DNA of 64,000 nt from an uncultured Bacteroidales bacterium (lineage in GTDB: Bacteria; Bacteroidota; Bacteroidia; Bacteroidales; FEN-979). The translations under genes and the position numbers were made by a program. The notes under the pieces were generated by a model. The model saw only the letters and a program-made list of their open reading frames with translations. It was not told the DNA's origin and did not search any database. Shown one piece after another: positions 18,995 through 29,925 of the stretch (its first letter is position 1; every line of letters starts with the position of its first letter). The stretch spans positions 1,755 through 65,754 of the forward strand of contig CAIJYT010000281.1 in the NCBI GenBank assembly GCA_903824935.1, given 5' to 3'.

Positions 18995-19460
18995 CCCAGC
19001 ACTGATACTGCCTCTTTACCTGGTGTTTATACTATTTTGCCTTTTGGCCTGCGTCAAGGACAGGCCTGCGGGGCAAAGGATTTACTTTCCATCGGGCACA
19101 TGGCAGAGATACCATATCCTTAAATTCGGGATCCCTGTCGGTGAAAGTGAGAAGTCCTATGACATTGTATTTGAACTGAGATGCAGGAAATCCTTTGACT
19201 ATGATGAGCTTCCGCTGAATATGGTCCTTGATACACCATCAGGAGAGGAGAGGATAAAAGAATACCAGATGCAGATCCGTGATAAAAACGGAATACCAGC
19301 AGGGACAGTAAACGGGGATACCTGCACTACCCGTATATTTCTAAAAAAGAACCTGTATTGTCCGAAAAAAGGAGTTTTAAAGGTTGAGATAGAAAACCTT
19401 AATCCGCGGATGGCAACTGAAGGTGTTTTTTCAGCAGGCATTATCCTTGTCAGGCGCTGA
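18975..19460 (+). CDS. gldH: GldH-like gliding-motility lipoprotein
   Basis: Start at ATG 18975 gives a signal peptide plus lipobox (FCLLAC). The central block KEYQMQIRDKNGIPAGTVNGD resembles the GldH EYQMANPDG region. It overlaps the upstream kinase by 20 nt. Confidence 0.6.
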   Translation: MIQKKFNPALILPLYLVFILFCLLACVKDRPAGQRIYFPSGTWQRYHILKFGIPVGESEKSYDIVFELRCRKSFDYDELPLNMVLDTPSGEERIKEYQMQIRDKNGIPAGTVNGDTCTTRIFLKKNLYCPKKGVLKVEIENLNPRMATEGVFSAGIILVRR

Positions 19461-19910
19461 AAGTATTTTCATGGCCTTTGATTTATCACGATTCATCTGG
19501 CTGACCAGTTGTGTGAGGTTTTTGAATTTTTTTTCTTTTCTAAGAGCCAGGATGACGGTTATTGAAATTTCAGTTCCGTAGAGATCTTCAGAAAAATCAA
19601 GAATATTTACCTCGATAACAACCCGTGTCCCGCCTATTGTGGGTCGCTTGCCTATATTACAGAGACCGAAAAATTTCGTCCCCTTCAGAAGAACAGACAC
19701 CAGGTATACTCCGTTTGGGATAGAAGGATAATTACTATCCGGGGGATGAATATTTGCTGTGGGAAAGCCTAAAGTTCTTCCCAGGTGATTCCCGTGAACA
19801 ACTGTTCCGCTGATAGTGTAGCCTTCTGATAATCCTGAAGAAACAGGATTATTCCCGTTTGAAGGTTTTACAGATGAGGAATATTTTGGCCCGGAATTCA
19901 TTAAGCCCAA
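19431..19910 (-). CDS. riboflavin kinase (RibF C-terminal-domain-only protein)
   Basis: 159 aa. GTVVHGNHLGRTLGFPTANI and E..ILDFSEDLYG...LRKEKKF blocks match the bacterial RFK domain. There is no FAD-synthetase domain. The 3' end overlaps gldH convergently by 30 nt. Confidence 0.75.
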   Translation of the reverse strand: MGLMNSGPKYSSSVKPSNGNNPVSSGLSEGYTISGTVVHGNHLGRTLGFPTANIHPPDSNYPSIPNGVYLVSVLLKGTKFFGLCNIGKRPTIGGTRVVIEVNILDFSEDLYGTEISITVILALRKEKKFKNLTQLVSQMNRDKSKAMKILSAPDKDNAC

Positions 19911-19933
19911 AACTACACAAAAAGAGGTTAAAC

Positions 19934-20830
19934 TCAGAGAGTCGGCTTATCTTTTTTGCTGTCCATTTTGATCATGAACAACTCCCATACAGCATACATA
20001 TAATGCGCCCATACGCCGGCAAGCATGATGACCAGGGTGATGATCATCCATAAAGGTGCGATAGGGGTCCAGAGTTCCCTGGAAGGTACCTCGGCTTTGT
20101 AGTATTGCTTTGGGACTCCCCAGTTGATGTTTGAGGTTCCCTGCACGAAACCATATTTATCATTCTCCTCGATCTTGGCAATGATTTTGAGGTTTCCAAG
20201 GGTATCTCCGACAATATCATTCGGGAATTCGAAACTTGCCTTACCTTCTTCATCGAGGGCGACTTCTCCGATTTTAAGCAGGCTGAACAGGCGGGGTACA
20301 TAAAGCAGTACCGTTTCCTTTGTAAGGGCAACTTCCTGTCCTTTCGCATCTTTCCGTGTGCCAGTCACATTCAGGTAACGGATCGAGTCCTGAACATTGA
20401 AAGTGATCCTGAGTTTTGCAGGTTCTGCAGTAAAACTCTCAGAAACCGAGGTGTATTTAGGGGTTCCGTCAAACCTTGACACATAGGTGATCATCCCGTC
20501 TTTGCCGGGACGCAGTTTGGAGATCACAACATTCAGGACTGCATTCCCATCCTGGTCAGTAACTGCAGTTCCAAGCGGGATCATTGCATTTTCCTCCTTA
20601 CAGAAAAATCCTACCGTTGCATTCATTAAGCCATAAGGATCACTTTCCTTTTTAATGTAAAGGTTTGCTGTAAGGTTAACCGAATCGTTGGAAGTGCATA
20701 CATAGGAAAATGTAAGATGGGATTCCAGTATTGTGCTGCTGTCCTTTTTTTCTTCCGCACGTGTAAGCGAAGGAACCAGCAACACCGCCAGTATTGCCAG
20801 GGAAATGATCAGGTATAAATGTTTTTTCAT
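19934..20830 (-). CDS. bitopic periplasmic protein with Ig/carboxypeptidase-regulatory-like repeats and C-terminal TM anchor
   Basis: Start at the internal Met (MKKHLYLIISLAILAVLLVPSLTRA, signal peptide), 20 nt after the nrfD-like stop. The longer ORF-track start would overlap nrfD. C-terminal TM segment IAPLWMIITLVIMLAGVWAHYMY. Confidence 0.55.
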   Translation of the reverse strand: MKKHLYLIISLAILAVLLVPSLTRAEEKKDSSTILESHLTFSYVCTSNDSVNLTANLYIKKESDPYGLMNATVGFFCKEENAMIPLGTAVTDQDGNAVLNVVISKLRPGKDGMITYVSRFDGTPKYTSVSESFTAEPAKLRITFNVQDSIRYLNVTGTRKDAKGQEVALTKETVLLYVPRLFSLLKIGEVALDEEGKASFEFPNDIVGDTLGNLKIIAKIEENDKYGFVQGTSNINWGVPKQYYKAEVPSRELWTPIAPLWMIITLVIMLAGVWAHYMYAVWELFMIKMDSKKDKPTL

Positions 20831-20850
20831 GGGGTTACGAATGAAATGAT

Positions 20851-22164
20851 TTATACTAAAACGTCGTCCGGATTGGATTCCTGTGTATTCCCGGCAACGT
20901 TTACAATCGGAATGAATTTGGAGGCCAGGGTAAAGAGAAGACAGAACATAGCAATCCCGGCAGCAGTGAGGCTCCATTCAACCCAGGTTGACTGGTAAAT
21001 GCTCCATTCGGGGCGGCTGTCCTGGATGGGCAGGTAAGGTGATTGCAGTGTCGGTATAACAATCAGGTAGCGGTTGAGCCATAAGGCTATGATCACGACT
21101 ACAGCGGCAAGAGTGATGTTGGTTATTGTACGGAGTTTTGCGATTCCGACCACCAGCAGGGGCAACAGAACGCCGACATAGTTCGAAATGATAAAGGGCC
21201 AGTAGAATTCCTTGAACAGCAGTTGTATAAGAAGTTCATCATTCTTCTCTGATCCATACCATTTAGTCAGGTAGTCGCTGAATGTAAAATACCCGAAAAA
21301 TGCCGCAAGTACAAGCATGATCAGGCCTACTGCAACAAAATGTTTTTTAGTAATGTACTGTTCAAGATGGTAGACTTTCCTGAAAAACCACATTGCAACA
21401 ATGAGCACCGCACTTCCTGAATATACCGCAGCGATTACGAAATACGGTCCGAATATGGTGCTGTGCCAACCCGGTTGTAAAGTCACGCTGAAGATCCAGG
21501 CCAATACAGAGTATACTATGATTGCGATGGCAATAACCATGGTTGCCATGATGTTTGTGGCCCTCTCAAGGCGCTTTTTTTGTTCTTCCGTTCCGGTGTA
21601 CCCGAGAGCAAGCGCTTTATACAGTTTTTTTCTCCATTTCGGAAGTTGAAGTTCTTCAAAATCCCTCATGTTGGCAAGGTCCCTGAGAACAGCCAAATAC
21701 AGGAATATGAAGCAGCCGAAGATATCTGTTGAAATTGCAATAACGTCCCAGGTGATAGGCGACTGTATACGGCCATGCAGTACAAGATAATGCAGTTTAT
21801 CGAGCCTGCCGATGCAGAGCAGGATATAACAGGGCCCGATAAGAAGGGAAATTATAGTAATGAATTCCGCCATCCTGATTACAGGTTTTCTCCATGCGGT
21901 CTTGAACAGATGCAGGGTTCCCGAAATAAGAGCACCAGCATAACTGACCCCCATGAAAAAGATGAAGTTCACAATATAAATGCCCCAGACAACATTATCG
22001 CGCATACCTGTAACGATATGACCTTTGGTCACCTGCTGGATAAAAGCGTAAACACCCAATCCTATAACTGAAAGGAGGAAAAGGATCCAGACATACCCCT
22101 GTACGCTCGTTCTTTCTATCTGAGGGGCAAATTCCTTCAGTAATTGTTTTTCATTGTTTTCCAT
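20851..22164 (-). CDS. NrfD/PsrC-family polytopic membrane (quinone-interacting) subunit
   Basis: 437 aa, roughly 10 hydrophobic helices. N-terminal pattern GHIVTGMRDNVVWGIYIVNFIFFMGVSYAG and HGRIQSPITWD are typical of NrfD/ActC/PsrC-type proteins. Confidence 0.8.
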   Translation of the reverse strand: MENNEKQLLKEFAPQIERTSVQGYVWILFLLSVIGLGVYAFIQQVTKGHIVTGMRDNVVWGIYIVNFIFFMGVSYAGALISGTLHLFKTAWRKPVIRMAEFITIISLLIGPCYILLCIGRLDKLHYLVLHGRIQSPITWDVIAISTDIFGCFIFLYLAVLRDLANMRDFEELQLPKWRKKLYKALALGYTGTEEQKKRLERATNIMATMVIAIAIIVYSVLAWIFSVTLQPGWHSTIFGPYFVIAAVYSGSAVLIVAMWFFRKVYHLEQYITKKHFVAVGLIMLVLAAFFGYFTFSDYLTKWYGSEKNDELLIQLLFKEFYWPFIISNYVGVLLPLLVVGIAKLRTITNITLAAVVVIIALWLNRYLIVIPTLQSPYLPIQDSRPEWSIYQSTWVEWSLTAAGIAMFCLLFTLASKFIPIVNVAGNTQESNPDDVLV

Positions 22165-22166
22165 GG

Positions 22167-23126
22167 CTACAGCTTATGTTTTTTTGCGTAAGGTGTATTG
22201 ATATATCGGTTCTTGACACTCTCGTCGAGATCATTGAATCCACGGTCGACAGGGAACTGCCGGTCAACGGGAGGCAGGTAATATACGCAGGGCCTGGTTC
22301 CGAGCACTTCAAGATAACGGTATCCTGCACGGTCACGGATCAATTCACTGAATTTGAAGGTTTCGGTTCCGTTAGTCACTGTATCTTCATCAACATCACC
22401 AAAATAAATAACGCCCATAGGGCAGGAGGAAACACAGTAGGGGACTTTTCCAACCCGTATCAGGTCAGGGCAGAAATCGCATTTGGAAACCGTCCCCTCC
22501 TTGGCCGGGCTCGAAGCCTCGGGTGAATAAGGTTCTTTATCCTCATCGTATTCAGGGTAATGCTTCCAGGCAAACACCCGGGTGGAGTAGGGGCAGCCTG
22601 TCATGCAGAATTTACATCCGATGCAACGATTATTATCAATTAACACAATACCATCGGTACGTTTGAAAGTCGCACCCACCGGGCATACGCTGACGCACAA
22701 GGGATTGTCGCAGTGAAAACAGGGCTTTGGAAACCAGTATGGCGAGGTTTTTTCGGAATCCTGTAAAAGATAGACTTTCATGAATTCCTGGCTTTTGGGA
22801 AGGTGGTGGGCTTTCTGGCATCCCTGGACGCACTTTCGCGCATTTTTACATTTGCCCAGGTCGATAACCATTACAAACTTCTTTCCCGGAATTCCTTTGT
22901 GAGCCTCTTCAATTGACACCCTCGGAAGTTTGAGTTTAGCTTTATCAACTTCCATGATCTCGCCGTTGGTTGTCAGGACTTTAACTTTTTCCCCGCTTTC
23001 GCCGGAGGGATTTTCAGAATATGCATTCAGAAGGCCGCCTCCAACGGCAACACCGGCACCAGCCAGCAATCCTTTTTTGAGAAACTGTCGCCTGGAATTT
23101 TTTTGATTGTTCTGTTCTTCTTCCAC
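22167..23126 (-). CDS. Tat-exported NrfC/PsrB-like 4x[4Fe-4S] ferredoxin subunit
   Basis: Twin-arginine signal SRRQFLKKG. Cys clusters CKNARKCVQGC, CFHCDNPLCVSVCP, CIGCKFCMTGCP and CDFC...CVSSCP. Confidence 0.85.
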   Translation of the reverse strand: MEEEQNNQKNSRRQFLKKGLLAGAGVAVGGGLLNAYSENPSGESGEKVKVLTTNGEIMEVDKAKLKLPRVSIEEAHKGIPGKKFVMVIDLGKCKNARKCVQGCQKAHHLPKSQEFMKVYLLQDSEKTSPYWFPKPCFHCDNPLCVSVCPVGATFKRTDGIVLIDNNRCIGCKFCMTGCPYSTRVFAWKHYPEYDEDKEPYSPEASSPAKEGTVSKCDFCPDLIRVGKVPYCVSSCPMGVIYFGDVDEDTVTNGTETFKFSELIRDRAGYRYLEVLGTRPCVYYLPPVDRQFPVDRGFNDLDESVKNRYINTPYAKKHKL

Positions 23127-23149
23127 GATAGCTGAAAATTAATTATGGA

Positions 23150-23764
23150 TTAATGATACCCGTTGAAAATACTTTTGAAATTACTGAAAGCTGTCTTTCC
23201 GAATGTGCAGAAATAAAGATGTACACACATGAAGATGGTAATAACAAAACCACAGAAAAGATGCAGCAGGTCAGTGTAATCCAGGCCGCTGATCCCGATC
23301 AGTCCGTTCACTGTAAGGTCGGGATATAATAAGCCTAATCCCGAGATGATCGCCAGAGGTATAATGGTGTACATCACGGCAACATAGGAAAATTGCTGAA
23401 GGGGGTTGAATTTTGATTCGGTTGTAACAGGAAAAGGAGCCGGTTCCTTTTTAAAAACACCTATAGTATAATGATGAAACTGTATTTTAAGGCGTTTAAA
23501 GAAACCTTTGACCTCGATCACATAGTAACCCCCGTTTTTGGTGAAGAGGTTGCCGATAAAAAAAAGGATATAGTTAAATGACAGGAGAACACCGGCGACA
23601 TTATGAATGGCAACAGCTACATTGAATCTCACTGTAATTGTGGGATTTGAAAACTGGATACTGAGTCCGGTTATGATCAGCAACAGGCATAAAACTGCGT
23701 TCAGAACGTGCCACAATCTTATCCAAACGGGGTACAGGTATATAGGTTCGTTATGATTTTCCAT
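23150..23764 (-). CDS. b-type cytochrome membrane subunit (PhsC/FdnI/Ni-hydrogenase cytochrome b-like)
   Basis: 204 aa, about 4 TM helices with conserved-looking His (RLWHVLNA, AIHNVAG, LLHLFCG, CVHLYF). Confidence 0.7.
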   Translation of the reverse strand: MENHNEPIYLYPVWIRLWHVLNAVLCLLLIITGLSIQFSNPTITVRFNVAVAIHNVAGVLLSFNYILFFIGNLFTKNGGYYVIEVKGFFKRLKIQFHHYTIGVFKKEPAPFPVTTESKFNPLQQFSYVAVMYTIIPLAIISGLGLLYPDLTVNGLIGISGLDYTDLLHLFCGFVITIFMCVHLYFCTFGKTAFSNFKSIFNGYH

Positions 23765-23766
23765 GG

Positions 23767-24783
23767 TCAGTGTGATTTTTGGATACGAATAACAGCATGA
23801 ATCAGGATTGCGAGTATTGTAAGGCTGAACAGGACAATGCTTATGATATTCAGTGTGTTGTTCTGATCCGGGCCGATAGTGGATGTTTCGCTCAGGAACA
23901 GGCCTTTGAACAATCCCTGCTTTTTAATGTTTTCCTTCACCTGGTATTTGAATAGTGAAGCATAAAGGATTGAATTTTTTGCATGGCAGGATTCACATTT
24001 TTTAACAGCCATATTTTTAGGCATGATTTCATGGGCTATGAGCAGGGTGTCCTTGTTGCGGGCATGACATTCAATGCACCGTACATTGATGAAATGTGTT
24101 GCCTGGTTCGGCAGCCAGTCATGTTTCTGAAGGATATTAGGCTGCTGCTTGTTAGTGAGCAGTTCATATTTAGTTACGTCACCATGGCAGTTAAGGCATA
24201 TAAGATTATCGTATGCCACGGTTTCCTGCAAATTTTCATTGGTTCGTGCATTGATACGGTAAGTATGAGGGTTATGGCACATCCAGCAGGTAAACTCCTC
24301 GCTGTGCTTCTGGGAATGAACACTTGACATAAAATTCGAGTCGATTTTTTCAAACTGGAATTTTGCATATTTCTCATCCCCTCCGTGGCAGTCGATGCAA
24401 TTTGCTTTTGACTCCATGCGAAGATTTCCCGGGTGGGGGAATGTGAGGTAATCCTCCGAATGGCAGTCGGTACATTTAAACCCTTTATGGTTTGAAACGT
24501 AAAATTCATTACGGTCAATGATAAGCTCCGAATACATCCTTTTATAGCTTATTTTCTTCGATTCGGCATTTTCAAAGGTATACTTTGACTGTCCGTGGCA
24601 CCTGAGACATTTTTCATTGACAGGGAACTGTTCAAGGTTGACGATTTTAGTATTTTCAACCGGCTTGACTTTTTTTCCTGAAGAGGATGAGTCAGTGCTT
24701 TTAACCAGTGCAAAAGCGACGGCAAAGAGCAGGAGGAGGAACAATACAACCCAGGCAGGACGGATATTTGCTCGGTAGATCAT
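23767..24783 (-). CDS. heptahaem c-type cytochrome with N-terminal signal/anchor and C-terminal TM helix
   Basis: Seven CXXCH motifs: CLRCH, CTDCH, CIDCH, CWMCH, CLNCH, CIECH, CESCH. C-terminal hydrophobic segment IISIVLFSLTILAILIHAVI. Confidence 0.85.
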   Translation of the reverse strand: MIYRANIRPAWVVLFLLLLFAVAFALVKSTDSSSSGKKVKPVENTKIVNLEQFPVNEKCLRCHGQSKYTFENAESKKISYKRMYSELIIDRNEFYVSNHKGFKCTDCHSEDYLTFPHPGNLRMESKANCIDCHGGDEKYAKFQFEKIDSNFMSSVHSQKHSEEFTCWMCHNPHTYRINARTNENLQETVAYDNLICLNCHGDVTKYELLTNKQQPNILQKHDWLPNQATHFINVRCIECHARNKDTLLIAHEIMPKNMAVKKCESCHAKNSILYASLFKYQVKENIKKQGLFKGLFLSETSTIGPDQNNTLNIISIVLFSLTILAILIHAVIRIQKSH

Positions 24784-24827
24784 AGCAATGATGAGTTAAA
24801 TACTGGTAAAAATTATCAGGATTAAAA

Positions 24828-24868
24828 TAAATGGGTGTTTGCCGTAAATCCTGGCAAACACCCATTTA
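24828..24868 (-). terminator. strong hairpin (terminator or attenuator) between the monohaem and heptahaem cytochrome genes
   Basis: 16-bp perfect stem TAAATGGGTGTTTGCC / GGCAAACACCCATTTA with a 9-nt loop. On the minus strand it is followed by TTTTAAT. It sits 23 nt after the cytochrome c stop. Confidence 0.55.
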
Positions 24869-24891
24869 TATAATTACTTAAAGCACCTTGA

Positions 24892-25311
24892 TTACTTTTT
24901 AAGGGTGCGCATATAGGCAACCAAAGCCCAACGGTCACCGGCTTCGGGAATCTTCTTTTCGTAAGCAGGCATTTCATCGCGGCCTTTGCTTGTTTCGAAA
25001 TAAAGTTCTCCGTCGGTCTGTCCCTGGAAAGCAGCAGATGTGAAGTCTCCGGGGTTGGTTTTCAGTGAAGCAGCCTTAGGCCCGTCGCCGAGACCTTTGC
25101 TTCCATGGCATGATTTGCAATGTTTTGCCCAAAGATCTTTACCGTTATTGATAACGCCTGCATCCTTGAGGTTGGCAGCTGCTTTAGTGTTCTTGTCTTT
25201 GTCAGGAACATTCCAGGGTTTCTTGGCCTGGGAATAAGAATTTCCTGCAATGAAAAATACAGCAATCACCATGGTGATTAAAACTGTAATAATTTTCTGT
25301 GTTGTTTTCAT
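24892..25311 (-). CDS. monohaem class I cytochrome c
   Basis: 139 aa. Signal/anchor, single CKSCH motif and a distal Met candidate in DEMPAY. Confidence 0.85.
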   Translation of the reverse strand: MKTTQKIITVLITMVIAVFFIAGNSYSQAKKPWNVPDKDKNTKAAANLKDAGVINNGKDLWAKHCKSCHGSKGLGDGPKAASLKTNPGDFTSAAFQGQTDGELYFETSKGRDEMPAYEKKIPEAGDRWALVAYMRTLKK

Positions 25312-25342
25312 AATGGTTTTTGTTTTAAGGTTTCAGATTGAT

Positions 25343-26278
25343 TTAGAATGTCCAAAGGCGGGTCAGGTTGAACCCGAAAAGGATAAAGCCATTCCAGAAA
25401 TTGTTTGTGTTTGTTGCAGTTGTATACTGGGGAACAATTCCGTTTGCAGCCTCCATGAATATCTGGAAGGTATGGGTTGATGTTGAAATTTCCCAACCGA
25501 TTGACACGTTCTGGCAGGTTTGCATGCTTGAACTTTGCACAGTCATCCAATGGTTCGGATACCTTACAACGAACGCAGGATCATAATTCATGATAATAGG
25601 CTGTTCGAAAGCGATCATGATAGATGACTGCGGACTGACTTTAAGGCGGCCAAGAACTGAAATGGAAGCAACGTCACTCATTTTACTCGTGTCGGTTTTA
25701 TTGAAATGTGAGTAAGCAAGACCGATCTGCATAGAGAACATCTTACAGAAACGGCGGGCAAACATGAATTCATGGTACCATGAAAACCTGTCGGAGAATT
25801 TATAGTCAAGGCCGAAAACTTTACGGTCAGATGCATCCAGAGCGAGGTTGCCATAGTAACCAATGGTCAGAGGGGCTCCTCCTTTACGCTGGTGCAGGAA
25901 AGTGTACTTAACCTGCAGATCCTGTACCATATGATTTTTTGTGGTACCAAGTCCGATCATAAGGTTCTTGACGGGGGTGAAGTTCAGTCCCAGGCGGATG
26001 TTGGAAGCTCCCCACAGGCCCCAGATATCAGTCCATTTGTGCTGTATGGTACCGAAGCGATGCTCCAGGTTGAATTCCAGAGTTTTGGCAGTGGGTACTT
26101 CCACAGTCTGGTAATCGACAAAAATTCCGCTCTCAAAGGGTTTCTTTTCAAGGGGCTTTTTTGCAGGAGCAGCAACAGAATCAGTCGCTTCCTGTGCGAA
26201 AGCCAGAACCAGACCTGAGAAAAAGAATAATATACTGAGAGTAATCTTTTTAAGTGTCATAGCTATGTTTTTATTCAT
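25343..26278 (-). CDS. outer-membrane-type beta-barrel protein (possibly DUF5777-like)
   Basis: Signal peptide (LVLAFAQ), amphipathic strand pattern, C-terminal beta-signal-like end GFNLTRLWTF. The start could instead be the Met at 26260. Confidence 0.65.
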   Translation of the reverse strand: MNKNIAMTLKKITLSILFFFSGLVLAFAQEATDSVAAPAKKPLEKKPFESGIFVDYQTVEVPTAKTLEFNLEHRFGTIQHKWTDIWGLWGASNIRLGLNFTPVKNLMIGLGTTKNHMVQDLQVKYTFLHQRKGGAPLTIGYYGNLALDASDRKVFGLDYKFSDRFSWYHEFMFARRFCKMFSMQIGLAYSHFNKTDTSKMSDVASISVLGRLKVSPQSSIMIAFEQPIIMNYDPAFVVRYPNHWMTVQSSSMQTCQNVSIGWEISTSTHTFQIFMEAANGIVPQYTTATNTNNFWNGFILFGFNLTRLWTF

Positions 26279-26286
26279 GTTAATAC

Positions 26287-26643
26287 TTAATTATTTAATG
26301 CACCCTGGTTGACCCAGTTTTTGATCTTACCTGCATCGGTCGAATTGCAGTAACCCGACATACTCCCGGTTGAAACTTTCTGGTAGAGTATGCTTGAGGC
26401 AGCATCCCCGGCAACGACCAGTTTATTATCCATCAGGCTTTGATATGATTTTCCAGCCCTGAGGTCAGGCGAGGGACCACCCGGAACATGGCAGGTGCAA
26501 CCCGATAAAATCGGCTGTATGTCTGTCGCATAGCTTACTGGTGTGCTTGGTGAAGGAACATCCGGATAGATCTTGGCATATTCACAGGACACTAAAACGG
26601 AGAGCACCGTAAGAACGGATAAAAGGTTAATTAGCTTTTTCAT
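26287..26643 (-). CDS. small lipoprotein with cytochrome-c-like domain carrying CXCH instead of CXXCH
   Basis: 118 aa, lipobox VLVSC. DIQPILSGCTCH...IKNWVNQGALNN resembles PSCyt1-type haem-binding domains, but the motif is C-T-C-H (nt 26488-26499). Confidence 0.6.
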   Translation of the reverse strand: MKKLINLLSVLTVLSVLVSCEYAKIYPDVPSPSTPVSYATDIQPILSGCTCHVPGGPSPDLRAGKSYQSLMDNKLVVAGDAASSILYQKVSTGSMSGYCNSTDAGKIKNWVNQGALNN

Positions 26644-26693
26644 TTTTTAATGTTTGTGGTTACTGATTTTAATTTGTCGATTTTAAAATTTTA

Positions 26694-26731
26694 CGAAAAA
26701 AGGCTTCAGGATTGCTTATCCTGAAGCCTTT
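26694..26731 (-). terminator. rho-independent terminator after the hexahaem cytochrome gene
   Basis: The minus strand reads AGGCTTCAGGAT-AAGCA-ATCCTGAAGCCT followed by TTTTTTCG. It starts 22 nt after the stop at 26752. Confidence 0.8.
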
Positions 26732-26751
26732 CCTGGTAATTCATACAAGGA

Positions 26752-27846
26752 CTACGGTAATGATTGCATGTAAGCAATACCGGCATCAAGCATATCGCTG
26801 AAATAGGCGAAATTATGGATACCCATACTGCGGTCGGCAGCAACCATATTGAAGTTCCAGATTACAGCTAACTGGATCTGTGTGAATTTCTTGGGTTTGC
26901 TGGCACTCACGCCTTTAAGGAGTAAATAGGTGCTTGAACTTGCAACAGTGTCGATAATGTTTTTATTCCCGAGAAGGGTCATTAACGTCTTGTATTTAGT
27001 GTTAATAGTAGTTTGCGCACCATTATAATCGAAAGTTGTTCCGATTGCAGAATGACAAGGTTTGCAAACTGCAACGTTGTCACCGGTTGAACTGGATGAC
27101 ATAGTCCAGGTATGGCCTCCAACCATGTTACCCTGGGCAGGTCCCATATGGCAATTCCTGCAGGTTGCATTACCTTTATGGTTGGTACTGCGGAAAGCAG
27201 ATGAACCCATTTCGAAAGCGCCCTTACCGGCAAGCATGAGGAACTGAGGTCCATGGTGCGGTCCCCAGCGGTTGCTGGTAACTGAAAGTGAGTCGGTTCC
27301 TTTGGGGTTGGTAACCCAGGGGCTGGTTTTCCTTGCCTGGTGGCATTTTCCGCAAAGGTTTGATGTACCGTCGGTACCACCTGCCAGCTGAACAGTTAAG
27401 TCAATGGAAGAGGTAGTGTCAATGTAAGGATGAACAGGAGTAACATCCCTCAAAGCCCAGTCAGCCGGGGTATAAGTGGCATGAATGGTATGGCATGTGC
27501 GGCAGTTGATAGGAGCAGCATCATTATATGCCTGAGTCACAGTTGAACCGGTCTGCAGTTTTTCCAGGAATCCTTCATGGCTGTGGCAGCCAGAACATCC
27601 ACCACGGGCAGCTTCGGCAATCGTAGTTGCTGCAGCATGCTTGGAAGCATCATACTGGAAAATTTTTACGATAACGGTATCGCTGAAATTATGGCAATTG
27701 GTGCAGGTTGCATTGGCATCCTTACCGTTTGTTCCGTTTGCACCAGCGGGACCCTGGGGACCTTCTTTGGTACATCCGATAAAAATAAGACCGGAAACCG
27801 CCATAACCATGATCCCCGATAAAACTAACATGAGTAATCTTTTCAT
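26752..27846 (-). CDS. hexahaem c-type cytochrome lipoprotein with collagen-like N-terminal GXY repeat
   Basis: Lipobox LIFIGC and five GXY triplets (GPQGPAGANGTNGKD). Six CXXCH motifs: CTNCH, CSGCH, CRTCH, CGKCH, CRNCH, CKPCH. Confidence 0.85.
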   Translation of the reverse strand: MKRLLMLVLSGIMVMAVSGLIFIGCTKEGPQGPAGANGTNGKDANATCTNCHNFSDTVIVKIFQYDASKHAAATTIAEAARGGCSGCHSHEGFLEKLQTGSTVTQAYNDAAPINCRTCHTIHATYTPADWALRDVTPVHPYIDTTSSIDLTVQLAGGTDGTSNLCGKCHQARKTSPWVTNPKGTDSLSVTSNRWGPHHGPQFLMLAGKGAFEMGSSAFRSTNHKGNATCRNCHMGPAQGNMVGGHTWTMSSSSTGDNVAVCKPCHSAIGTTFDYNGAQTTINTKYKTLMTLLGNKNIIDTVASSSTYLLLKGVSASKPKKFTQIQLAVIWNFNMVAADRSMGIHNFAYFSDMLDAGIAYMQSLP

Positions 27847-27975
27847 ATTCTTTCAGTTTTTGTTAATAAATGCATTTGTATATAGCAGACAATGGTGCAA
27901 TAATCTTGCACGACAAAAATATTGATTTATGTTGTTAGAAAGTTAACAGACAGGTGAGATTTGTTTCAAAAAGAA

Positions 27976-27989
27976 CTGATATCCATCAA
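27976..27989. promoter_or_regulatory. near-consensus FNR/CRP-type box
   Basis: CTGATATCCATCAA has one mismatch to TTGAT-N4-ATCAA. It is centred 21 bp from the perfect box. Confidence 0.5.
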
Positions 27990-27996
27990 TTCTTTA

Positions 27997-28010
27997 TTGA
28001 TATAGATCAA
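27997..28010. promoter_or_regulatory. perfect FNR/CRP-type box
   Basis: TTGATATAGATCAA matches TTGAT-N4-ATCAA. It lies between the Crp/Fnr gene stop and the hexahaem cytochrome start, about 150 bp upstream of the latter. Confidence 0.65.
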
Positions 28011-28052
28011 TGATTACATAGGTAGATATCATCGGATCAGGGTTGGTCCGTA

Positions 28053-28748
28053 TCAGCCGGTCTCGCTGATCTGCTTAAGATGCTTGATATTGAGGATGTC
28101 AAAGAGATTTCCGTCGACCGAAAGTATTCCCTCCTCCTTGAATTCTTTGAGTATCCTGATCGCACTTTCCTTAGACATTCCCGAAAGGTCAGCAAGGTCC
28201 TGTCGTGAGATTGTCATGTTAAAAGGGTTGGCGCAATATATTTTTTCAGAGAGGTAAAATAATGCGTCAGCAATACGTCCATGCATTTGTTTCTGGGTTA
28301 GGCTGATCACCTGTTCAAAATTAAACAAGGTCTGCATGGATAGCCTTTTTATGAAACTTTCTGCAAAGTCGGGATTGGAACGGATAAGCTTTTTAAAAAT
28401 TGCAGTGTCGACAAGACATGCTGTGGTATCTTCTATCGCGGAAGCAGAATAATAATGCTTATTATCAATGTATACCCCCGGGCCGAAAATATAATCCACG
28501 GGCTTTACCAGGGCAAGGATAAGGTTCTTTCCGTATCCTTCAATGTATATTTTGGATAAACCTGAAGTTATGCATACAAAATGTGAAGACGGGGTCCCCT
28601 GCTTGAACATGATCTCTCCTGCCTTGTAAGCCACATGGAACCTCCCGGTGTTGATTTCACCAAGCTCATCAGTGCCTAGGCTTTTAAAAATGGAAGATTT
28701 GCAGCTGCAATCTGCACAATTAGTAAAAATCGGAGGTTTGCCGTTCAT
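28053..28748 (-). CDS. Crp/Fnr-family transcriptional regulator with N-terminal Cys cluster
   Basis: 231 aa. N-terminal CADCSC, a cNMP-binding-like beta-roll and a C-terminal HTH (RQDLADLSGMSKESAIRILKEF). Confidence 0.85.
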   Translation of the reverse strand: MNGKPPIFTNCADCSCKSSIFKSLGTDELGEINTGRFHVAYKAGEIMFKQGTPSSHFVCITSGLSKIYIEGYGKNLILALVKPVDYIFGPGVYIDNKHYYSASAIEDTTACLVDTAIFKKLIRSNPDFAESFIKRLSMQTLFNFEQVISLTQKQMHGRIADALFYLSEKIYCANPFNMTISRQDLADLSGMSKESAIRILKEFKEEGILSVDGNLFDILNIKHLKQISETG

Positions 28749-28941
28749 TCTTTCTCTTTCTCAACAAACTGATCCCGTCTTTTGTGAAAAATGATGGACA
28801 TAATTTAAAAACCAGTCAGTTTATTTAAAATCAATACGATAAACTACATTGATCTCACAAAATTAGAAAAAGAATTGACAAAAAACAAAAAAATAGTAAC
28901 TTTTTATCAATTGCAGGGTTGAGGAAAATCAACACTCTTGC

Positions 28942-29925
28942 TTAACGGGCCCCGAAAAGATAGGTGGCGATCTGAACTGCATTTGTTGCCGCACCCTTAC
29001 GCAGGTTGTCGGCAACAACCCATAAATTGAGGGATTTCGGCTGGCTTTCATCCCGCCTGATCCTGCCCACAAACACTTCATTCCTGCCTTTGGAGTAAAG
29101 AGGCATAGGGTAAAGATTTTCTGAAGGATTATCCTGGATAACAATTCCCGGAGTACTGCCAAGAAGGCTCAGAACGTCTTCAACTTTGAAATCATTCTCA
29201 AATTCTATATTGACCGACTCGGAATGGCCGCCGGTCACGGGAACCCTGACGACAGTTGCGGTGACCTGTATGGACTGATCATTAAGGATCTTGCGGGTTT
29301 CATTCACCAGTTTTTCTTCTTCGGTGGTGTAACCGTTCGGAAGGAAGCTTCCGCCATGAGGAAAAAGGTTCATATCAATGGGATGGGGATAGGCCATATC
29401 GCCTTTAATTCCCATTCTCTCATTTTCGAGCTGTCGAACAGCACGGATCCCGGTTCCTGTTACCGACTGGTATGTTGAAACCACAATCCTTCGGATCCTG
29501 TATTTCTGATGAAGCGGGGCAAGGACCAGGACCATCTGTATTGTGGAACAATTCGGATTTGCGATTATTTTGTGCGCACTGTCGAGCATGCCGGCATTTA
29601 TTTCAGGGACAACCAGGGGGATATCATTATCCATTCTCCAGGCCGAAGAATTATCTATAACTGTGATGCCTGCCCCTGCATATTTTGGAGCCCATTCTTT
29701 TGATGTTCCCGCACCGGCACTGAAAATGGCTGCATGGGGTTTAAGCGCAATCACATCAGTATGATCCAGAACCTTATATGTTTTCCCCTTAAATTCAATC
29801 GGCGAGCCAATGGATTTTTGGGATGCAACAGGGTAAAACGCATCAAGAAGGATATCACCTTCCTCCAGAACCCTGATTATTTCCCTTCCGACAAGTCCGG
29901 TTGCACCAACAACAGCAAGTCTCAT
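28942..29925 (-). CDS. asd: aspartate-semialdehyde dehydrogenase
   Basis: Start at MRLAVVGATGLVGRE (Rossmann motif). Active-site region IANPNCSTIQ. The ORF-track N-terminal extension is unlikely. Confidence 0.9.
   Translation of the reverse strand: MRLAVVGATGLVGREIIRVLEEGDILLDAFYPVASQKSIGSPIEFKGKTYKVLDHTDVIALKPHAAIFSAGAGTSKEWAPKYAGAGITVIDNSSAWRMDNDIPLVVPEINAGMLDSAHKIIANPNCSTIQMVLVLAPLHQKYRIRRIVVSTYQSVTGTGIRAVRQLENERMGIKGDMAYPHPIDMNLFPHGGSFLPNGYTTEEEKLVNETRKILNDQSIQVTATVVRVPVTGGHSESVNIEFENDFKVEDVLSLLGSTPGIVIQDNPSENLYPMPLYSKGRNEVFVGRIRRDESQPKSLNLWVVADNLRKGAATNAVQIATYLFGAR

Follow-up and report, generated by a model that had tools for sequence, protein, structure and literature searches.

A CbcBA-type cytochrome pair and an optional NrfCD-type module in one Bacteroidales gene cluster

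A 64,000-nucleotide (nt) stretch of DNA from an uncultured Bacteroidales bacterium (contig CAIJYT010000281.1), here called the window, carries a ten-gene, single-strand cluster. In gene order it encodes a CRP/FNR-family regulator, the multihaem cytochrome c MHC6, the small lipoprotein Lipo118, a DUF5777 protein, a mono-haem cytochrome c, a heptahaem cytochrome c, a cytochrome b, an NrfC-type ferredoxin, an NrfD-like protein and a protein termed X298. The last five, from heptahaem c to X298, form the inner-membrane end of the cluster and are the main subject of this work:

23767-24783, minus strand: heptahaem cytochrome c, CbcA-like; 338 amino acids (aa), seven CxxCH motifs, C-terminal membrane helix
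23150-23764, minus strand: cytochrome b, CbcB-like di-haem protein of the FdnI/PhsC/HydC superfamily; 204 aa, PF01292, four membrane helices
22167-23126, minus strand: NrfC-type ferredoxin, Tat-exported, four cluster sites; 319 aa, GTG start, Fer4_11
20851-22164, minus strand: NrfD-family, ActC-like membrane subunit, ten helices, cofactor-less; 437 aa, PF03916
19934-20830, minus strand: X298, with a signal peptide, two Ig-like beta-sandwich domains and a C-terminal membrane helix; 298 aa

The original prediction, made from the sequence of this region, described the first four of these genes as two quinone-interacting membrane modules in one tightly packed operon. Their order and the gaps between them (2 nt between heptahaem c and cytochrome b, 23 nt between cytochrome b and NrfC, 2 nt between NrfC and NrfD) are confirmed by the minus-strand open reading frames (ORFs). 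Gene calls on identical contigs add X298 as a co-oriented fifth gene, 20 nt behind NrfD. A mechanically called ORF of 347 aa (19934-20977, minus strand) over-extends X298 and shares 127 nt with the 3' end of the NrfD gene; the true start is almost certainly Met50 (20830), which gives the 298-aa product called on the identical contigs. In a promoter and terminator scan of positions 19400-29000, promoter-like sites were rarer than in shuffled sequence and no internal terminator was convincing; the scan is uninformative, its consensus not fitting Bacteroidota.

A scan of one genome per species with a cytochrome b alignment found relatives in 287 genomes, the best 80 of which were analysed. Nearly all of these 80 are labelled Bacteroidota, including Bacteroidales, Prolixibacteraceae, Draconibacterium and Lentimicrobiaceae, and only a few loci (L012, L036, L017 and L061) carry another phylum label or none. 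L017 is labelled Alphaproteobacteria; its identities to the window proteins are essentially equal to those of L018, a Bacteroidales metagenome-assembled genome (MAG), and its contig is probably mis-binned or mislabelled. The cluster is present, whole or largely, in most of the 80 loci (tblastn with ten window proteins), and the heptahaem c gene lies immediately upstream of the cytochrome b gene in all of them. In the MAG L021 (Draconibacterium orientale) the set is complete.

The three genes downstream of this pair behave differently. Among the 75 loci with at least 3.5 kb of sequence downstream of cytochrome b, NrfC, NrfD and X298 follow directly behind cytochrome b in 52 and are all absent from the other 23; partial sets were not found (0/75). 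The tight operon of two quinone-type membrane modules described in the original prediction is therefore a conserved arrangement. The trio-less loci show no run of N at the junction behind cytochrome b. For example, in the close relative L009, whose cytochrome b is 81% identical to that of the window and whose flavokinase, GldH and sensor-kinase neighbours are kept, only 53 nt separate the cytochrome b and flavokinase genes. Within this spacer, the segment CCTCTTTTT-GTAGTTTTGGGC matches window sequence downstream of X298, which suggests a deletion and not an insertion. Trio-less loci are moreover interspersed among trio-bearing ones on the cytochrome b tree, which implies repeated loss. When recently trio-less loci were considered, no residue in cytochrome b, heptahaem c or mono-haem c tracked the presence of the trio past the threshold used.

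The linkage was also followed in the opposite direction, in a scan of metagenome contigs. An X298 alignment headed by its most divergent member served as query, and 36 loci had enough upstream sequence. Cytochrome b lies immediately upstream of NrfC in 34 of these 36 X298-anchored loci, and the b/c pair belongs to the same cluster in 35. One of the other arrangements, in L126 (5686-10988), is rearranged, with NrfC, NrfD and X298 preceding the mono-haem c, heptahaem c and cytochrome b genes of the same cluster. The other, in L089 (5649-8858), is a trio on its own, accompanied by a divergently transcribed CRP/FNR gene. No cytochrome gene lies within 8 kb of it, and the neighbouring genes encode DNA polymerase III alpha, tetratricopeptide repeat (TPR) proteins and an ATP synthase subunit. 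Across the cluster, NrfC and NrfD are the best-conserved proteins, with a median identity of 83%, compared with 64-65% for cytochrome b and heptahaem c and 56% for X298, and NrfD divergence correlates with cytochrome b divergence (r = 0.88). The trio is thus dispensable to the b/c pair yet almost never found away from it. The linkage in 35 of 36 loci, the tight gene spacing and the correlated divergence together indicate a dedicated functional partnership.

These counts also bear on the alternative that two functionally unrelated operons adjoin by chance. The loss of the trio without the pair, and its occurrence alone in L089, would fit such an explanation. However, 52 species genomes and 34 of the 36 independently anchored metagenome loci have the genes adjacent and in this order, which likewise sets aside a rare juxtaposition confined to this genome; the genes share one strand with gaps of 2-23 nt, and the two parts diverge together. 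Chance juxtaposition is effectively ruled out by the co-occurrence counts, and we give it a next to negligible probability.

The heptahaem cytochrome c has an N-terminal signal and a C-terminal hydrophobic helix at residues 313-331. Its seven CxxCH motifs are kept in 80 of 81 orthologues, and His329 and Arg333 of the membrane helix are invariant among the 81 Bacteroidota sequences; a sequence search of the PDB gave only a marginal match. Cytochrome b matches PF01292 (E 3.8e-22) and has four hydrophobic helices. Of the NCBIfam models, PhsC fits it best (181 bits, below the cut-off of 204) and FdnI and HydC fit less well; a sequence search of the PDB gave no match. An AlphaFold2 model of it (pLDDT 59.6) was judged too poor for a fold search and was not used. 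H19, H54, H168 and H182 are invariant in 81 orthologues, as is a KFNPLQQ motif before helix 3. We take the spacing of the four histidines to match that of H18, H57, H155 and H169 in FdnI, and by analogy with FdnI the KFNPLQQ motif may mark a quinone site belonging to cytochrome b itself.

Walking through a distant representative led to a cytochrome b of Oryzomonas (Geobacteraceae), a CbcB that aligns with the window protein over its full length (32% identity, E 1e-33), the four histidines and KFNPLQ included. The CbcA-like protein encoded directly upstream of it is collinear with heptahaem c (25% identity, E 7e-15). The Oryzomonas locus consists of a BccR-like sigma-54 regulator, two small ORFs, the CbcA-like gene, cbcB and a further multihaem c gene, and no Fer4, NrfC, NrfD or X298 gene was found near cbcB. 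Judged by these alignments, the heptahaem c and cytochrome b pair is homologous to Geobacteraceae CbcA/CbcB, in line with the resemblance to CbcBA originally proposed. The same c-to-b gene pair, with no NrfC or NrfD nearby, also occurs in Geobacteraceae, Thermodesulfobacteriota-like, Chlorobi and Deferribacteres contigs.

In an all-against-all search of representatives, the cytochrome b family proved small (574 representatives) and rich in fusions. Ten long representatives were scanned, and these are fused solely to c-type domains or to stretches without a Pfam match, none to iron-sulfur or NrfD domains. The CbcB-like fusions, of 500-890 aa, usually carry the multihaem c part at the N-terminus (e.g. 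P0245, P0249, P0313 and P0360), and P0249 has a NapC/NirT-like domain behind cytochrome b. They match the cbcB-cbcA fusions mentioned for Chloroflexi (Joshi et al. 2021). The same study describes Geobacter CbcB as a four-helix di-haem cytochrome b and CbcA as a seven-haem cytochrome c with a His in its C-terminal helix, and lists cbcBA homologues in Bacteroidetes (Prolixibacter, Marinilabiliales and Labilibaculum), where the b protein is annotated as "thiosulfate reductase"-like (Joshi et al. 2021). A literature search for CbcBA in combination with Bacteroidetes found nothing beyond that study.

The window pair thus shares with Geobacter CbcBA (GSU0594/GSU0593, Cbc5) a four-helix PF01292 di-haem cytochrome b whose gene directly follows that of a heptahaem cytochrome c with a C-terminal helix, and the conserved His in the anchor helix of the c-type subunit. 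Several features differ. Here the regulator is of the CRP/FNR type, whereas in Geobacter it is the divergent, sigma-54-dependent BccR; all four b-haem histidines lie within the b subunit here; and NrfC, NrfD and X298 are all missing from the vicinity of the Geobacteraceae locus. The DUF5777 barrel and the lipoprotein cytochromes accompany the pair in Bacteroidota loci only and were found in none of the four other-phylum loci sampled. The whole Cbc5 locus (cbcEDCBA) was considered as a precedent for a union of CbcBA with NrfCD and rejected: in the literature CbcD is a c-type cytochrome, CbcE a membrane protein, and the Geobacteraceae locus has neither Fer4 nor NrfD.

The ferredoxin has an SRRQFLK Tat motif, a Fer4_11 domain and four Cys groups, of which groups II-IV are canonical, and it has no hydrophobic helix. 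DsrO comes out first among the NCBIfam models (168 bits, cut-off 200), with NrfC (106 against 378) and QrcC (117 against 400) further below their cut-offs, and the best PDB match is PsrB. The first Cys group had been singled out as unusual, and the alignment bears this out: group I reads C-K-N-A-R-K-C-x3-C, with Ala at the second Cys of the CxxCxxCxxxC of PsrB. This Ala is found in every orthologue with a matched motif, and the motif is CKNAR[KA]C in all of these except one (CKSARKC); 3 of 57 sequences scanned had no motif match. The C-x5-C-x3-C spacing is the classic signature of a [3Fe-4S] cluster, as in SdhB/FrdB and NarH, and in the PsrB/NarH family group I holds the cluster farthest from the membrane. 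Because the Cys-to-Ala change yields this spacing, group I is predicted to hold a [3Fe-4S] cluster that would serve as the distal exit for electrons, probably at higher potential.

The NrfD-like protein matches PF03916 (E 1.2e-30) and has about ten hydrophobic segments. Family models give DsrP as its best NCBIfam match, far under the cut-off (85 bits against 350); QrcD scores 45 bits against 570. Among solved structures it matches only subunits of alternative complex III (ACIII), aligning over its full length with the ActC subunits of four of them (6f0k_C, 6btm_C, 8k9e_C and 6lod_C; E 4e-53 to 2e-43) and weakly with ActF. The top structure matches are 6f0k_C (184 bits, E 4.4e-53) and 6btm_C (E 3.6e-46), and the PDB sequence search gave no match to PsrC. 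For ActC, His139, Asp169 and Asp253 have been proposed as quinol ligands, with Ser164 also listed and Arg395 as a gate (Calisto and Pereira, PMC8076601). Mapped through the alignment, Ser164, Asp169 and Arg395 correspond to S135, D140 and R365 of the NrfD-like protein, whereas Cys117 stands in place of His139 and Ile224 in place of Asp253. None of the five positions varies among 55 NrfD-like sequences, and the quinol pocket is therefore a clade-specific variant. At the position of C117, other proteins of the NrfD family carry Asp, Glu, His or Ser.

X298 has no Pfam or NCBIfam match, and its 472 homologues are all named hypothetical or Ig-like. In an AlphaFold2 model (pLDDT 78), a signal peptide is followed by two Ig-like sandwiches and, at the C-terminus, a long helix; a fold search with this model returned generic Ig-fold matches only. 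X298 contains no redox motif. Its most conserved part is the juxtamembrane and membrane-helix segment, which is nearly invariant. This conservation, together with the strict co-occurrence with NrfC and NrfD, suggests that X298 is a structural subunit bound to NrfD through its membrane helix, and it appears to represent a new accessory subunit family without a described counterpart.

These parts can be set beside known systems. With ACIII, the cluster shares a ferredoxin with one three-Cys site, as well as a membrane-anchored multihaem cytochrome c and a mono-haem cytochrome c in the same system. However, the pterin-like ActB1 domain, ActF, ActA and ActD are all missing here, there is a single NrfD gene, and the ferredoxin has Fer4 domains only. 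The three-Cys site also lies in group I (distal) here, in contrast to group III (membrane-proximal, beside the quinol site) in ActB, and a di-haem cytochrome b is present here and absent from ACIII. The cluster is not an ACIII, since it is without the pterin-like domain, ActF and ActA. Geobacter Cbc4 (CbcSTU) and Shewanella SirCD, which were compared by description only, link the quinone pool to multihaem cytochromes in metal-respiring bacteria. They likewise use a periplasmic four-cluster ferredoxin and a cofactor-less NrfD/PsrC-type subunit without a pterin subunit, but each has its own dedicated cytochrome (CbcS, SirA) and no adjacent di-haem cytochrome b. PhsABC and FdnGHI share PF01292 b subunits (PhsC, FdnI) with the cluster; they differ in their molybdopterin subunits (PhsA, FdnG), which have no counterpart in the cluster, where the partner of the b subunit is a multihaem cytochrome c instead of PhsB or FdnH. 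NrfABCD and QrcABCD differ in that no NrfA- or QrcB-like gene is present here, and scores to NrfC, QrcC and QrcD are under the cut-offs.

QrcCD is described as an electrogenic quinone reductase of the NrfCD type with one [3Fe-4S] cluster, which brings up the reverse direction of electron flow. Electrons from an extracellular or periplasmic donor would then pass over the outer-membrane components and the c haems to menaquinone, both through the b subunit, acting as the FdnI-like half of a redox loop, and through a Qrc-like electrogenic NrfCD, so that both routes would conserve energy. FdnI and HydC, characterised relatives that the b subunit matches weakly, are themselves quinone reductases. 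Against this direction, the one CbcBA studied by genetics takes electrons from menaquinol towards Fe(III), the cluster has no gene for a donor-oxidising enzyme, and CRP/FNR control in a Bacteroidales host, probably a fermentative one, suggests an anaerobic electron sink. We regard quinone reduction as distinctly unlikely.

More weight attaches to the comparison with DsrMKJOP. The original prediction held that known complexes normally use one type of quinone module or the other, which is incorrect: DsrMKJOP contains both the di-haem b subunit DsrM and the NrfD-type DsrP. HmcABCDEF also combines a di-haem cytochrome b with an NrfD-type subunit. Like the window cluster, DsrMKJOP unites a di-haem cytochrome b, an NrfC-type ferredoxin, an NrfD-type subunit and a membrane-anchored cytochrome c in one system. 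According to a cryo-EM preprint (2026), quinol is oxidised at DsrP, DsrM only relays electrons, and JOP was added to an older MK core, a history that resembles the pattern of core and add-on seen here. The differences are considerable. DsrM is a NarI/HdrE-type cytochrome b and the window protein belongs to PF01292; no DsrK-like cytoplasmic catalytic subunit is present; the c-type subunit has seven haems instead of three; no sulfur-metabolism genes lie in the cluster; and the DsrO and DsrP scores are far under their cut-offs.

With this precedent, the five proteins could form an obligate supercomplex in which quinol is oxidised only at the NrfD-like subunit, NrfC passes electrons to heptahaem c and the b subunit acts as a wire, some or all electrons returning through the b haems to a quinone site on the cytoplasmic side or to a partner subunit. 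Besides the direct precedent of DsrMKJOP and its core/add-on history, the short intergenic gaps, the trio's near-constant place beside the pair and the joint divergence of cytochrome b and NrfD are what such a complex would lead one to expect. Several observations speak against it. The b/c pair stands without the trio in 23 of 75 genomes, the trio stands alone in L089, and cytochrome b shows no trio-linked substitutions comparable to the difference between DsrM-1 and DsrM-2. The b subunit is of the PF01292 and not the NarI/DsrM type, and its invariant KFNPLQQ would point to a quinone site of its own. No HdrD/DsrK-like cytoplasmic subunit is encoded in the cluster, and a return from quinol to quinone would lack driving force. 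An obligate four-subunit form of the supercomplex raised in the original prediction is made less likely by these results, and we consider an obligate supercomplex of this kind unlikely. The original suggestion that the b subunit is a wire and NrfD the quinol site fares unevenly: a division of labour of this kind has been proposed for DsrMKJOP, but the lack of a cytoplasmic partner and the KFNPLQQ retained by cytochrome b tell against the wire. Nothing points to the bifurcating or confurcating arrangement that was also raised.

We slightly favour a reading in which two parallel menaquinol-oxidising entries feed one periplasmic haem pool, the trio being an optional route with different coupling. 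The block-wise loss of the trio, the stand-alone trio of L089, the lack of trio-linked substitutions and the occurrence of the pair without NrfCD in other phyla all argue that the modules are separable. The five genes would then make up the cytoplasmic-membrane end of a respiratory cytochrome cluster of Bacteroidales and encode two separable menaquinol:cytochrome c oxidoreductase modules.

The first module, always present, would be the CbcBA-type pair, with heptahaem c anchored beside the b subunit by its C-terminal helix, which carries a His. FdnI and CbcB serve as models for the b subunit: it probably takes electrons from menaquinol at a site facing the cytoplasm and sends them outward through its two b haems. 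Since protons would be released inside and the membrane potential would help, this module could reach low-potential acceptors. Geobacter CbcBA is needed only at very low acceptor potential. The literature places its quinol oxidation, probably, on the N-side, where the membrane potential would drive electrons outward and the proton-motive force would gain nothing. This fits the role of CbcBA near the thermodynamic limit and the lower growth yield (Joshi et al. 2021).

The second, optional module would consist of NrfC, NrfD and X298 and resemble the iron-sulfur ActB/ActC core of ACIII minus the pterin-like domain. The ActC-like subunit would oxidise quinol at a site facing the periplasm, and electrons would run through the ferredoxin clusters to the distal [3Fe-4S]-type site and on to a c-type haem, most likely that of the neighbouring heptahaem c or mono-haem c. 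X298, with no redox role, would be a structural subunit that its conserved membrane helix ties to NrfD. NrfD-type subunits in general are described as having a P-side quinol site beside the ferredoxin, with putative proton paths (PMC8076601). From the shared periplasmic haem pool, electrons would pass to the DUF5777 barrel and the lipoprotein cytochromes. For this scheme, we infer the direction of electron flow, the sidedness of the quinone sites, the energy coupling, the haem acceptor of NrfC and the final acceptor.

Several points weigh against this two-entry reading. A single physical complex would explain just as well why the trio is linked almost exclusively to the b/c pair and why the genes are so tightly spaced. 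If both modules were active at the same time on shared haems, a short circuit could arise, with quinone cycling futilely and the proton-motive force being dissipated, a risk that argues for some wiring or gating. Class-I mono-haem cytochromes c usually have high potentials, which is awkward for a low-potential extracellular acceptor. Haem b binding by the 204-aa cytochrome b, the [3Fe-4S] assignment in NrfC and quinol oxidation by both modules are predictions from motifs. Finally, two of the three proposed quinol ligands of ActC (His139 and Asp253) are replaced in the NrfD-like subunit, whose site may therefore work otherwise or bind no quinol.

A further arrangement would join the two entries physically. 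All five proteins would form one dual-site quinol:cytochrome c oxidoreductase, in which a periplasm-facing ActC-like site and a cytoplasm-facing CbcB-like site are coupled through shared c haems and gated by Cys117 and the distal [3Fe-4S] cluster. We hold this to be very unlikely. If true, it would amount to a Q-cycle-like or potential-gated device built from parts unrelated to bc1, with which the cell could tune the number of protons it moves for each electron to the acceptor potential.

The remaining five genes of the cluster lie upstream of heptahaem c:

28053-28748, minus strand: CRP/FNR-family regulator at the head of the cluster; cNMP_binding and HTH_Crp_2 domains, weak Fnr/FnrL/FixK matches
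26752-27846, minus strand: MHC6, lipoprotein multihaem cytochrome c; 364 aa, lipobox FIGC, six CxxCH motifs
26287-26643, minus strand: Lipo118, small lipoprotein with a haem-motif-like C-T-C-H; 118 aa
25343-26278, minus strand: DUF5777 membrane beta-barrel, probably of the outer membrane; 311 aa, PF19089 over its full length (E 1.8e-62)
24892-25311, minus strand: periplasmic class-I mono-haem cytochrome c; 139 aa, PF00034/PF13442

Most related loci have a homologue of the CRP/FNR regulator next to the cluster, and in the trio-bearing loci it is 69-90% identical. In the mono-haem cytochrome c, the CxxCH (C65/C68/H69) and M114-P115 are invariant among orthologues. The DUF5777 gene is present in most of the 80 loci and was undetected upstream in six trio-less loci of deeper clades; a literature search on DUF5777 found no paper. 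MHC6 is by far the fastest-evolving protein of the cluster (median identity 30%), with orthologues carrying five or six CxxCH motifs. It gave weak profile matches to Cytochrome_C7 and to an MtrC domain, and no match in a sequence search of the PDB. In some loci MHC6 is duplicated, and in the window a short collagen-like Gly-x-y run (GPQGPAGANGTNGKD) stands right behind its lipobox.

Lipo118 matches the LIC11213 family well under the cut-off. Its Cys...Cys-His element is conserved across orthologues with variable spacing, as CxCH, CxxCH or Cx4CH. The window and its closest relatives have C-x-C-H (GCTCH), most others CxxCH, and L011-L014, L017 and L018 have Cx4CH (loci compared: L004-L042); all of these variants sit behind a conserved IQPIF segment. 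We know of no description of CxCH, the form found in the window, as a haem-attachment motif.

Directly downstream of the cluster lies a gene for a protein of about 156 aa (19431-19910, minus strand) with a riboflavin-kinase (Flavokinase) domain only, which has counterparts in L001 (13864-14334) and in the trio-less L009 (10672-11142). The position of this kinase-only RibF fragment beside a putative electron-export cluster may be coincidence, or may be tied to flavin cofactors or shuttles. Otherwise the window contains housekeeping and typical Bacteroidota genes, such as those for tRNA synthetases, proteins sorted by the type IX secretion system, GldH and peptidases, and the nearest public contigs are from Bacteroidota and Bacteroidales MAGs.

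Within the limited literature searched, no description was found of a CbcBA pair together with an ActC-like NrfCD and X298 in a cluster with DUF5777 and lipoprotein cytochromes. The operon is a new combination of known building blocks, not a new kind of machine, and no principle is overturned, since mixed cytochrome b/NrfD complexes are already known. What is new here is the X298 family and an ActC-like clade with Cys at a quinol-site position.

How energy conservation in bacteria is tuned to the potential of an external electron acceptor is still unsolved. The answer found in Geobacter involves three separately encoded quinol oxidases, ImcH, CbcL and CbcBA, whereas the Bacteroidales cluster holds a CbcBA-type and an ACIII-like NrfCD module within one operon. 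The repeated natural loss of the trio provides ready-made comparison pairs and a presence/absence series: if the energy coupling of the modules differs, growth yield and the lowest respirable potential should not be the same in strains that have the trio and in related ones that lack it. The cluster also flags many uncultured Bacteroidales of freshwater and sediment as candidates for cytochrome-based, possibly extracellular, respiration.

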